A stretch of DNA of 64,000 nucleotides from Escherichia coli (GCF_013122565.1 NZ_CP053258.1); one strand, 5' to 3'; counted from the first letter of the stretch, positions 2,610-42,558 are shown. Translations and numbers: made by a program. Notes: generated by a model from the letters alone, not told the origin.

Positions 2610-3313
2610 ACGCGTTCAATCCAACGCTCCAGAAGCTCCGGCAACATCAGCGCAATTTTATGAAGTAACTGCGTTCCCTGCCCTTGTTGATAGTGACTGG
2701 CATCGCGACTGGTAAACAGCACAACACCCAAATCAGCATCGCTTCCCAGCATCGACATCGCCACCGATCCCACCGCTTTCGCTTCAGGTAGCACCACCAG
2801 CAGCTCCGGTCCGTTAAGCGGCCCAAGATAGTGCTGTTCCTGCCCCAGACGCTGAATACGCAGCGGTTCGAAAGACTGACGGCTTAATGCCAGATGAGTG
2901 TGGTTCGACGGCGCACCTAAGCGCCAGCGATCCGGAAACAGGCGCAGACTCGCACCAGCCAGGCCGAGATCGCGCGCCCAGCGGTGAAAGCGCATCAGCA
3001 TATCGTCGAGACTGCTGGCGGCGGTGAGACTGCGCTGCAGGTAGAGTAGGCGATAAAACAGGCCTTCGTTGGCGATAGCCTGTTCCATCAACAGCGCCAT
3101 GTTCTCTTCCAGAACATGAATATGGTTACGCGCGCGAGCCATATGCCATTCGACCAACGAAACGGTGCCGCGTACCGGATGCGGCACACGTATCGCTTCT
3201 ACTGCGCGCGCATTGCGGATAAAAAACTCAGGATTTTTAATCAGATAATCGACAACCGCCCGGTCATCGAGCTCCGTGAGTGTTTCCTGCAGTTCTTCCC
3301 CTGGTTGCTTCAT
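2606..3313 (-). CDS. yigA: DUF484-family protein YigA (235 aa)
   Basis: 235 aa ORF overlapping xerC start and dapF stop by 4 bp, typical dapF-yigA-xerC-yigB operon. Confidence 0.88.
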
Positions 3314-39391: not shown

Positions 39392-41413
39392 TTATTTCCC
39401 TCGTTTTGCCGCCATCATCGCTTTCAGATTCGCCAGATGGCTTTGCCCTTTCTGCATCCGTTCTTCGGCGCTGACCACTTTGCGCTCCTGTTCCCAAATC
39501 AGATCATCCTGCGGCAGCTCCAGCAAAAAGCGGCTCGGCTCCGGGCGCACCAGTTCGCCGTACTGACGGCGTTCTTTACACAGTGTAAAGGTCAATTCCT
39601 TCTGGGCGCGGGTAATGCCGACATAGGCCAGCCGCCGCTCCTCATCGATATTATCTTCATCGATGCTGCTCTGGTGCGGCAAAAAACCTTCTTCCATACC
39701 GACCATGTAGACATAAGGAAACTCCAGCCCTTTCGACGCGTGGAGAGTCATCAGTTGCACCTGATCCAGCTCTTCTTCACTCTCACCACGCTCCATCATG
39801 TCGCGCAAAGTAAAGCGCGTCACCACCTGGGTGAGCGTCATCGGCTCATCCAGTTCGCTGCCTTCCAGCATCTCCGTCATCCAGCTAAATAACTGGTTAA
39901 CGTTTTTCATACGCATTTCGGCGGCTTTCGGGCTGGGTGAGGTTTCGTACAGCCAGGATTCATAATCCATGCCGTGGATCAGATCGCGCACCGCGGCAAT
40001 CGGCTCCCGCTCCGCCAGACGCTGGATTTCTGCCAACCAGTGAGTGAAGCGGGTCAATGCTTCATAACCACGTCCGCTAAGCGTCTGACTCAGGCCCATA
40101 TCAAAGCTGGCGGTAAACATGCTTTTATTGCGCGTCATCGCCCACTCCCCCAGCTTTTTCAGCGTCGCCGGGCCAATCTCTCGCTTCGGCGTGTTGACGA
40201 TACGCAGAAATGCGCTGTCATCGTCCGGGTTAGTCAGCACGCGCAGATAAGCCAGCAAGTCCTTGATTTCAGGACGAGAGAAAAACGACGTACCACCAGA
40301 TATTTTGTACGGGATGCGGTTTTGCATCAGGAATTTTTCAAACACCCGCGACTGATGGTTACCGCGATAAAGAATAGCGTAATCTTTGTACTGCGTTTTA
40401 TTGACGAAGTGATGCGCAATCAGTTCACCAGTGACGCGCTCGGCTTCATGTTCTTCATTATTCGCGCTTAAAACTTTTAGCTCTGTGCCGTAACCCAGTT
40501 CGGAGAACAGACGCTTTTCAAAGACGTGCGGGTTATTGGCGATCAGGATGTTCGCCGCTTTCAAAATACGTCCGGAAGAGCGGTAGTTCTGCTCAAGCTT
40601 AATCACCTTCAGCGCCGGGAAATCCTGGCTCAGCAGCACCAGGTTTTGCGGACGTGCGCCGCGCCAGGAGTAGATCGACTGGTCATCGTCACCCACCACG
40701 GTAAAGCGCGCGCGGCTGCCCACCAGCAGTTTCACCAGTTCATACTGGCTGGTGTTGGTGTCCTGATACTCATCCACCAGCAGGTAGCGAATTTTGTTCT
40801 GCCAGCGTTCGCGTACTTCTTCATTGCGTTGCAGCAGCAACGTCGGCAATAAAATCAGGTCATCGAAGTCGAGAACGTTACAGGCTTTCAGGTGTGCATC
40901 ATACAGCCCATAACAATGGGCAAAAATACGATCCCGCTCGCCCTTTGCCTCTGCCGCCGCCTGCGCCGGAGTTTTGAGATCGTTCTTCCAGTTGGAGATG
41001 GTCGAAATCAGCTGTTGCAGGAGAACTTTGTCATCTTCAATCAGCCCCTCGGTCAGCTCTTTAAGCAAAGCAAGCTGATCGGTATCGTCAAACAACGAGA
41101 AGTTTGCTTTCATCCCAAGCGCCGCATACTCGCGTTTGATGATATCCAGCCCCAGTGTGTGGAAGGTGGAGATCATCAGCCCACGCGCCTCTTTGCGACC
41201 CAGCGTCTGCCCGACACGCTCTTTCATCTCGCGCGCCGCCTTATTGGTAAAGGTCACCGCCGCGATATGTCGCGCCTGATAACCACAACCGCGGATCAGA
41301 TGGGCAATTTTATTGGTGATAACACGAGTTTTACCGGAACCCGCGCCCGCCAGCACCAGGCAGGGGCCGGTAACGAATTCGACAGCTTGTTGTTGGCCGG
41401 GGTTTAGACGCAT
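39392..41413 (-). CDS. rep: ATP-dependent DNA helicase Rep (673 aa)
   Basis: [40 protein letters not shown]; UvrD/Rep family. Confidence 0.95.
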
Positions 41414-41629
41414 AGGTGTATTGCTCAATCTTCGAACGGGAGGAGGATTGTAGCAGAATCACATTTGAATGTGACCGCGTGTAAGCCGCTAACCGGTTGG
41501 CTGTGGATGTTTAAATCAGAGAGGGAAGACCGAAACCGGAGTTCATTGTGAATCAATTAGACTTAGAAAATATCGGGTCGTAACGTTGTGTTATTACTTT
41601 TTCAGAGTTTACTAAGGAGAGGTTTACTC

Positions 41630-42079
41630 GTGGCGATTAATTTCAGCCCTAAGGTTGGTGAAATACTGGAATGCAACTTTGGTAACTATCCTGTTAGCCA
41701 GAATGGACAGTTCAGCACGACGTATTACGATGGCCGCATTCCTCCTGAAATGATAAAAAACAGGTTAGTTGTCGTGCTCAACGGAAAAATTAATGGCAAC
41801 GCATGTATCGTCGTTCCATTATCAACCACTCGCGACCATGACAAGTTAAATCGTGGAATGCATGTTGAAATAGCCAGTAATGTTATCAATGATCTGCAAT
41901 TCTTTGATCAGCAGATTCGTTGGGCCAAAGCCGACCTGGTACAACAAGTCAGTCGAAACCGATTAAACAGAGCAAGGACTTACAGAGGGTATCTTAATCA
42001 ATGTTTGCCATATGAGTTGGTTGCAGACATACAGAGGGCGGTCATCAAGTCAATCAATGCCATATCGCTCATAAATTGA
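41630..42079 (+). CDS. yifN: PemK/MazF-like toxin family protein, apparently intact (149 aa from GTG 41630)
   Basis: AAGGAGAG RBS 8 nt before GTG; product VAINFSPKVGEILECNF...NRLVVVLNG...ACIVVPLSTT has the PemK/MazF fold signature; position between rep and ppiC matches yifN. Confidence 0.7.
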   Translation: MAINFSPKVGEILECNFGNYPVSQNGQFSTTYYDGRIPPEMIKNRLVVVLNGKINGNACIVVPLSTTRDHDKLNRGMHVEIASNVINDLQFFDQQIRWAKADLVQQVSRNRLNRARTYRGYLNQCLPYELVADIQRAVIKSINAISLIN

Positions 42080-42154
42080 CAATAAAATCACCATCCCCGA
42101 TAATGACTTTGTAGCCCATAGAGGCCCTAAGTTTTCTCCCCTTGAGGGACCTGC

Positions 42155-42182
42155 GAAGCCCGGATTTTCCGGGCTTTTGCCA
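42155..42182 (+). terminator. Rho-independent terminator downstream of yifN
   Basis: GCCCGGA-tttt-CCGGGC hairpin followed by TTTTG. Confidence 0.7.
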
Positions 42183-42252
42183 TATATGTACCCCCCCACC
42201 CTGACTGACAATTACGTTAGCATCTGCGGATCATGCTAAAATCGCCGCCTGA

Positions 42253-42558
<306 letters not shown>

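Follow-up and report, generated by a model that had tools for sequence, protein, structure and literature searches.

How is an intact chromosomal toxin gene neutralised when no antitoxin gene adjoins it? The question is raised by yifN, a gene of the PemK/MazF toxin superfamily in a 64,000-nucleotide (nt) stretch of Escherichia coli DNA (GCF_013122565.1, NZ_CP053258.1), hereafter the window, from whose first letter coordinates are counted. A first-pass annotation of the window had described yifN as an intact, solitary toxin gene, with an upstream palindrome as a possible operator and a C-terminal extension that might be auto-inhibitory. The gene was indeed intact, and no protein antitoxin gene adjoined it, here or in its relatives (45 loci). 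It was not solitary: a conserved, independently transcribed small-RNA gene accompanied yifN at every locus examined. We hypothesized that this RNA, with its tandem hairpins, neutralises the YifN dimer and that the two genes form a type III-like toxin–antitoxin module, a reading we hold with slightly better than even confidence. The elements on which the argument turns are the following.

41630–42079, plus strand: yifN coding sequence (CDS), 149 amino acids (aa), GTG at 41630 to TGA at 42077–42079; a MazF/PemK-fold putative endoribonuclease
42076–42104, plus strand: sigma-70 promoter of the small RNA, TTGACA (42076–42081), 17-nt spacer, GATAAT (42099–42104); 11/12 consensus matches
42111–42189, plus strand: small RNA gene (ecr3777 in K-12), 79 nt, two tandem mini-hairpins and a terminator; candidate RNA antitoxin, from conservation, a covariance model and published expression
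42114–42125, plus strand: hairpin 1, GCC-CAUAGA-GGC, starting at nt 4 in 29 of 30 aligned RNAs
42137–42150, plus strand: hairpin 2, UCCC-CUUGA-GGGA, present in the aligned RNAs, with stems that change in concert with those of hairpin 1
42155–42177, plus strand: Rho-independent terminator hairpin, stem GAAGCCCGGA/UCCGGGCUUU, which must also end yifN transcripts

A small RNA gene beside yifN

Spurious open reading frames (ORFs) downstream of yifN in unrelated genera gave similar peptides, and a conserved nucleotide element was therefore suspected. In the window, the small RNA begins 32 nt past the yifN stop codon with a conserved 5′ end (GUAGCCC at 42111), and the −35 box of its promoter overlaps that stop codon. 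A sigma-70-type promoter was present at all 35 RNA copies compared, the −10 box ending 4–7 nt before the conserved 5′ end (6–7 nt in 33 of them). The mean promoter match over these copies was 9.4/12, compared with 5.4/12 at control positions. Since no terminator separates the co-directional yifN and RNA genes, the RNA is also the 3′ end of every yifN transcript, and its supply should therefore always equal or exceed that of the toxin mRNA.

The stems of hairpin 1 covaried (GCC/GGC, GGC/GCC, CCC/GGG and CGG/CCG) around a loop that was usually C-W-U-W-G-A, and a U-rich linker joined this hairpin to hairpin 2. An alignment of 27 sequences analysed with RNAalifold contained compensatory changes at 7 of the 16 predicted pairs. 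After Pasteurellaceae, Vibrio and other distant versions had been added (30 sequences), 88% of the alignment cells were paired, compared with 76% in shuffles, none of which reached the observed value (0/500), and with at most 60% in slid controls. Compensatory changes occurred in all three helices, and 93% of the terminator-helix cells were paired. In Pasteurellaceae, the two hairpins were near-identical repeats (UCGGCAUAGACCGCUUAAA twice, with CGG/CCG stems in both); on a Vibrio plasmid, they consisted of UAGCCGCAAGGCAAGUUU twice, with GCC-GCAA-GGC in both. Such concerted change of the paired hairpins is as expected of repeated sites that are read by one oligomeric protein. Two Betaproteobacteria contained three hairpin units. 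Three-unit betaproteobacterial RNAs were located at L037:4537–4643, L040:4537–4642, and L042:2979–3060 and 3136–3219 (L numbers denote loci of the comparison set).

Rfam 15 contained no family for the RNA; the best match, rnk_pseudo, reached 20.3 bits against a gathering score of 55 and covered little beyond the terminator. At 16 related loci, no Rfam family covered the small-RNA element by E-value or gathering threshold. A 53-aa minus-strand ORF over the RNA (42050–42211) was rejected as a protein gene, given 1-nt indels in close relatives and the covarying stems.

Coupling, expression and decay

A covariance model of the RNA (R1) was searched over 567 kb, which included loci outside model building. 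Matches with E<1e-3 lay solely beside yifN homologs, and none occurred in the yifN-less E. coli locus; the RNA of the window scored 77.6 bits (E=2e-16). When the protein was taken as the starting point, the RNA adjoined 35 of 35 intact YifN-family genes from species-representative genomes, and it was also found at 7 metagenome or genome contigs. It lay downstream of yifN on all six plasmids (five genera), including pCAR1 and the 6.3-kb pHN61; the pHN61 copy was weak by R1 (14 bits, E=0.06), and its tandem hairpins were confirmed by direct reading. When the RNA was taken as the starting point, an 18-nt pattern retrieved 66 metagenome loci, 33 of which were accepted by R1. yifN was located 35–139 nt upstream on the same strand in 33/33 accepted loci and in 0/33 rejected loci. 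Among 5426 complete E. coli genomes, yifN was present in 4015, in single copy, and so was the RNA.

The arrangement of the pair varied. On a Shewanella plasmid, the RNA was encoded on the opposite strand, convergent with yifN, and in Massilia and Herbaspirillum it lay upstream, divergent from yifN. As the link survived inversion and relocation, the RNA is more than a 3′ untranslated region (UTR). Herbaspirillum sp. Sphag64 carried two opposite-strand RNA copies upstream, beyond a winged helix-turn-helix (wHTH) gene that abuts yifN. Distant alphaproteobacterial homologs (approximately 30% identity) were followed by a promoter-driven structured RNA of different sequence. Downstream RNA elements were observed at the distant-homolog loci L051, L053–L054, L056–L062, L064, L067 and L069, mostly from Alphaproteobacteria, and one element (GCGCCUCAAGUCCAC...GGUGGCG...terminator) was common to five loci. 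These elements probably represent sister RNA families. In Pseudomonas sp. QS1027, a C4 antisense RNA (RF01695, 84 bits; L024:3095–3181) was located 900 nt upstream of yifN; this RNA is typical of P1/P7-type immunity regions, which suggests a prophage or plasmid context for that yifN.

Expression of the RNA in K-12 had already been reported. The transcript ecr3777(d+), 79 nt long and encoded on the same strand in the ppiC–yifO(yifN) spacer, was detected by RNA-seq and northern blotting (Romero et al. 2014, PMC4681348) and was also found by Conway et al. 2014, as listed in PMC4681348. It was described there as an expressed transcript only, with no function, conservation, structure or link to yifN. 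In Table S9 of that paper, the labels of probes ORL34 and ORL43 appear to be swapped (PMC4681348). The northern probe ORL43 matches window positions 42117–42146 exactly, as their reverse complement. With an offset between U00096.2 and U00096.3 that we take to be 1977 bp, the published coordinates become NC_000913.3 3959902–3959980, which corresponds to 42111–42189 in the window. The annotation of NC_000913.3 contains nothing at this interval.

Sequence comparison indicates that the small RNA is under selection. It was identical at 79/79 positions in seven E. coli loci, including that of MS6193, whose adjoining CDS had a synonymous divergence (dS) of 0.149; approximately 12 neutral changes would be expected in the RNA at this distance (P ~8e-6). 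Between the window and Superficieibacter, where the dS of the CDS was saturated, 71 nt (from the 5′ end through a conserved GCC after the terminator) differed by two single-base indels, and the last 8 nt of the RNA diverged.

The RNA was retained where yifN was not. Frameshifted, IS1-disrupted or truncated yifN copies kept it, whereas no intact yifN without the RNA was found among the loci examined. The K-12-type frameshift occurred in approximately 30% of E. coli carriers and in about half of the E. coli-type metagenome loci; other disrupted loci that kept the RNA came from Serratia quinivorans (L026), Photorhabdus (L032), Rahnella (L049) and Haemophilus (L050). Such asymmetric decay would be expected of an RNA that protects against YifN.

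YifN and its genomic setting

The assignment of the ORF at 41630–42079 to the PemK/MazF fold was confirmed, as was the interruption of yifN in K-12, where it is a pseudogene. YifN matched the Pfam hidden Markov model (HMM) PF02452 over residues 37–141 (profile positions 14–108 of 109; 40.4 bits against a cutoff of 23.1, E=3.6e-10). K-12 carries a 1-nt deletion (GACCA-GACAAG) and is flagged "frameshifted". The two observations that the first-pass annotation had named as telling against itself, no PemK/MazF HMM match or an identical, intact K-12 locus with a documented non-toxin function, were thus not made. In RefSeq, the same 450-nt CDS is annotated in other strains as "type II toxin-antitoxin system PemK/MazF family toxin", and its start at 41630 is supported by the agreement of the N-terminus (MAINFSPKVGEILEC) with the family consensus.

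YifN belongs to a distinct and small family (30 clusters at E≤1e-30 among 1.84 billion representatives), labelled "YifN (PemK superfamily)" by JGI and found in Enterobacterales, Pseudomonas, Shewanella, Pasteurellaceae, Xanthomonas, Legionellaceae and Betaproteobacteria. NCBIfam had no model matching YifN. The protein has the beta-barrel core and C-terminal helix of the MazF/Kid/CcdB fold, for which a fold comparison was needed; in a sequence search of the PDB, neither YifN nor the family profile reached any MazF chain. With hhalign, run against verified E. coli and B. subtilis MazF sequences, R45 and S65 of YifN paired with MazF R29 and T52, which we take to be the catalytic residues. The register agreed with that of Pfam, and both YifN residues were invariant in 46 family members. 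Because the hhalign score was weak (probability 11.6%, E=0.0026), this catalytic mapping is provisional. Intact yifN alleles were under purifying selection, with a ratio of non-synonymous to synonymous substitutions (dN/dS) of 0.04–0.27.

As the first-pass annotation had noted, YifN is approximately 40 aa longer than MazF (149 aa compared with ~110), but the additional length is internal and does not form a C-terminal extension. It consists of a 16-aa insertion in the beta1–beta2 loop (aa 28–43, with a conserved PPEM[VI]K) and two shorter insertions. The Pfam and hhalign alignments reach the C-terminal helix, and helix 128–148 of YifN aligns with the C-terminal helix of MazF. A phage origin was considered and rejected: the small-RNA pattern had no match in IMG/VR, and GenBank phages contained a single distant YifN homolog (27% identity), although PHROG 15698 matches YifN.

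The search for a protein antitoxin covered 1084 flanking ORFs from the 45 loci. All-against-all BLASTP revealed no family common beyond close relatives, only local synteny, and no small same-strand ORF consistently adjoined yifN; abutting ORFs were mostly spurious. The real genes among them (Rep_3, wHTH, metallophosphatase and HigA-like) were unrelated and confined to single lineages. On the 6.3-kb plasmid pHN61, where yifN follows a replication primase gene, no candidate antitoxin was found. As no protein antitoxin was present, YifN is not part of a type II system. Two distant relatives had close neighbours: a HigA-like helix-turn-helix ORF ends 29 nt before a Komagataeibacter homolog (L051:3652–3969), and a 63-aa ORF overlaps the start of a homolog on a V. 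vulnificus plasmid (L140:2287–2478). Some distant YifN relatives may therefore also have protein partners.

The gene order around yifN in the window is gppA-rep-yifN-ppiC-ilvC-ilvY-ilvA. rep is transcribed leftwards, its coding sequence ending at 41413, and ppiC starts at 42277. Three further features belong to this setting.

41417–42264, unstranded: presence/absence segment between rep and ppiC (rep upstream region, yifN and small RNA), from locus comparison
41459–41474, unstranded: palindrome TCACATT-TG-AATGTGA, 7-nt arms and 2-nt spacer
41614–41619, plus strand: yifN Shine-Dalgarno sequence AAGGAG, read directly in the sequence, 10 nt ahead of the GTG

In JJ1887-type genomes, an unrelated 74 bp replaces the segment and the rep–ppiC spacer is 86 bp; 41417–42264 is therefore a presence/absence cassette. 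The 848 bp of yifN strains also supply the rep promoter region, the JJ1887 counterpart being L003 2931–3016, so that two different promoter regions precede rep within E. coli. A 449-nt allele accounted for 12 of 39 evenly sampled full-length E. coli yifN matches, and one non-laboratory example was confirmed as "frameshifted". Another strain had an IS1 insertion in yifN, and the gene is intact in O157:H7. In MS6193 (L004), 46 bp are deleted between two CTGACAATT direct repeats (window ~42205–42250), in the stretch that separates the small-RNA terminator from ppiC; a C-rich tract at ~42196–42208 was also strain-variable. A second yifN paralog (56% identical), found on pig-associated E. coli plasmids, was accompanied by its own RNA version (82.5 bits) on the plasmid of E. 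coli ETEC4069 (L137, 4001–4593). In strains that carry the module both on the chromosome and on a plasmid, cross-talk or anti-addiction effects could arise.

The near-palindrome noted upstream of yifN is real, one base to the right of the position first given (approximately 41458–41473). Its interpretation as a yifN operator was not supported. It overlaps the −35 box of a predicted minus-strand rep promoter (GTCACA, 41475–41470; TACAAT, 41452–41447) and sits at the edge of a rep-proximal block that is conserved with Superficieibacter, including the arms. Among four aligned E. coli sequences, the arms were perfect in the window and PSS-07 and read TCGCATT in K-12 and O157:H7. Regions upstream of yifN were not conserved between genera, and no equivalent of the palindrome was found upstream of yifN in other genera; a 65-mer around it had no exact match among complete E. 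coli genomes. The chance of a 7-bp inverted repeat within ~200 bp, with spacers free, was estimated at ~0.1, which makes it only mildly unexpected. Judging from these sequence features, the palindrome is most likely part of the rep promoter region.

The 216-bp rep–yifN spacer contained tiny ORFs only, as had been noted, including one of 11 codons (41548–41583; GTG start, GGAG 6 nt ahead) in the yifN leader. The Superficieibacter leader has a 6-codon ORF that terminates at the same TAA, inside a conserved CGTAACGTT. The 11-codon ORF may encode a leader peptide or be due to chance. The conserved codons 6–10 of yifN (window 41645–41662 and the homologous codons of other loci; S/A-P-K-V-G) often fold into a CCC(C)-N5-7-GGG(G) mRNA hairpin. 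This hairpin, similar to those of the small RNA, could be an autoregulation site or a mere by-product of Pro/Gly codons.

Proposed mechanism, alternatives and known systems

In the mechanism we propose, YifN would be a toxic endoribonuclease of the MazF fold that retains the catalytic Arg and Ser/Thr. The 79-nt RNA would be made from its own strong, constitutive-type promoter. Each of its near-identical mini-hairpins would bind one subunit of the YifN dimer, presumably with a 2:2 stoichiometry, and keep the RNase from acting, in the way that type III repeat RNAs inhibit ToxN and CptN. If RNA supply stopped, owing to plasmid loss or transcription shut-off by a phage, the RNA would decay and, provided that its stability relative to that of YifN allows this, the RNase would be freed. 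The presence of the module on conjugative or mobilizable plasmids and as a presence/absence cassette in E. coli would suit such a biological role, since addiction modules are typically distributed in this way.

Several points weigh against this reading. The RNA hairpins are very small (3–4 bp), and much of the covariation signal is carried by the terminator alone. Known type III antitoxins are arrays of repeats that lie upstream and undergo processing by the toxin; the RNA described here is not of this kind. The asymmetry of decay is partly attributable to chance, because mutations strike a 450-nt target more often than one of 79 nt. YifN is also not covered by any PADLOC model. Ribo-RET evidence for translation of yifN was dropped, as the text of the source names yifN and the legend of its Fig. 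S6B names yjfN (bioRxiv 10.1101/520783).

The alternative that survives best, although we consider it unlikely, is that the RNA and YifN are partners but not antitoxin and toxin. The RNA would then be a substrate or cofactor, or the ribonucleoprotein would itself be the effector; a regulatory small RNA might, for example, depend on YifN for its processing or stability, or the complex might act in plasmid competition or defence. The co-occurrence, promoter and tandem-hairpin data fit any obligate RNA–protein pair, and the perfect conservation and expression of the RNA in K-12 despite a dead yifN could mean that it has a function of its own. However, the RNA has no variable "guide" segment, and the module as a whole can be dispensed with, as 26% of E. 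coli lack it. The plasmid and indel-cassette distribution and the recurrent inactivation of the toxin alone fit the logic of addiction better.

A type I-like antisense mechanism, in which the RNA would pair with the ribosome-binding site or early coding region of the yifN mRNA and block translation, appears improbable. In E. coli, the pyrimidine stretch UCUCCCCUU could pair with the yifN Shine-Dalgarno region AAGGAGAGG at 8 of 9 positions, and a few loci (L020 and L046) formed better-than-shuffled duplexes near codons 5–10. For most of the 22 pairs, however, RNAduplex scores against the cognate −80 to +60 region could not be told apart from those of shuffles (z around zero; −0.13 in the window). 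Conservation between genera extends to the 5′ half of the RNA but not to the 5′ regions of yifN, Pseudomonas RNAs have no matching anti-Shine-Dalgarno sequence, and the toxin is a soluble RNase-fold protein rather than a small membrane peptide. An antisense mechanism is thus disfavoured by the lack of consistent complementarity and by the unconserved 5′ UTRs.

We give equally little weight to the idea that YifN, as a MazF-fold protein that has become domesticated or inert, requires no neutralisation, with an RNA that is merely tolerated or regulates something else. In its favour, the toxicity of YifN is putative, loss or inactivation of the gene is frequent in E. coli and has no obvious consequence, and neither NCBIfam nor PADLOC models the family. 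The invariance of the catalytic Arg and Ser and the low dN/dS speak against it, and the strict coupling to one specific RNA, seen in different proteobacterial classes and on small plasmids alike, would be left unexplained. Finally, a true orphan toxin, restrained either through auto-inhibition by a C-terminal extension or by an antitoxin protein whose gene lies elsewhere, and followed by a mere terminator or 3′ UTR, would account for the greater length of the protein, the missing adjoining antitoxin and the double use of the E. coli RNA as yifN terminator, but is very improbable: the insertions are internal, a trans-acting protein antitoxin would not travel with the gene on 6-kb plasmids, and the autonomous promoter (35/35 copies), the inverted or relocated copies in three genera and the discrete 79-nt transcript exclude that the element serves purely as a 3′ UTR or terminator.

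If neutralisation of YifN by the RNA is correct, RNA-antitoxin systems would reach MazF/PemK, the largest superfamily of RNase toxins, and the definition of type III would widen beyond a repeat array upstream of the toxin, the criterion by which such systems were discovered. Genome surveys list many "orphan" toxins whose toleration is unexplained, and, as this case shows, a conserved non-coding partner can be overlooked when ORFs alone are inspected. The module would also offer a candidate function for a K-12 small RNA that has been detected since 2014 without an assigned role, and it may be a maintenance or defence cassette on catabolic or resistance plasmids such as pCAR1 and pHN61. E. coli holds three natural genotypes: module absent (B2 strains), toxin dead and RNA kept (K-12), and both intact (O157:H7 and the strain of the window).

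The annotation of yifN and the expression of ecr3777 were already known, and ecr3777(d+) of K-12 is the same RNA as that at 42111–42189. Neither a functional study of yifN, COG3692, ecr3777 or a PemK protein with an RNA antitoxin nor a paper linking yifN to an RNA partner was found in the incomplete library searched, and an earlier description may exist elsewhere. YifN shares its superfamily with the type II toxins MazF, PemK(Kid) and ChpBK (PF02452) by HMM match, fold and catalytic residues. It is only 12–22% identical to them and has the conserved 16-aa insertion in the beta1–beta2 loop. In contrast to MazF/PemK type II systems, there is neither a MazE/PemI-type antitoxin nor a bicistronic operon, and the constant neighbour is an RNA gene. 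With type I systems (Hok/Sok, TisB/IstR), the module shares a candidate antitoxin that is a small, separately transcribed RNA beside the toxin gene. Type I antitoxins pair with the mRNA of small membrane peptides, whereas yifN lacks consistent complementarity to its RNA and encodes a 149-aa RNase-fold protein.

The closest likeness is to type III systems (ToxIN, CptIN, TenpIN and AbiQ), which also have a linked non-coding RNA of tandem repeats, here two to three hairpin units. In the type III layout, a single promoter precedes the RNA, a terminator and the toxin gene, and the RNA consists of 2–5.5 repeats of ~34–45 nt that are cleaved by the toxin (PMC5086642). The yifN RNA departs from that operon layout: it usually lies downstream, has its own promoter and consists of mini-hairpins of ~12–14 nt and a terminator, and YifN belongs to PF02452 rather than to the ToxN/AbiQ, CptN or TenpN families. 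The yifN module was out of reach of previous searches for type III systems, because these demanded that repeats and a terminator precede a ToxN homolog. We see an even chance that yifN and its RNA represent an undescribed class of RNA-antitoxin system, with the first toxin of the PemK/MazF family under RNA control and K-12 ecr3777 as an orphan antitoxin. On this reading, the layout of the class is an autonomous downstream antitoxin gene that doubles as the 3′ end of the toxin mRNA; the module itself is carried by about three quarters of E. coli genomes and by IncP-7 and other plasmids. Most probably, yifN and its RNA are an RNA-antitoxin system of a new architecture.

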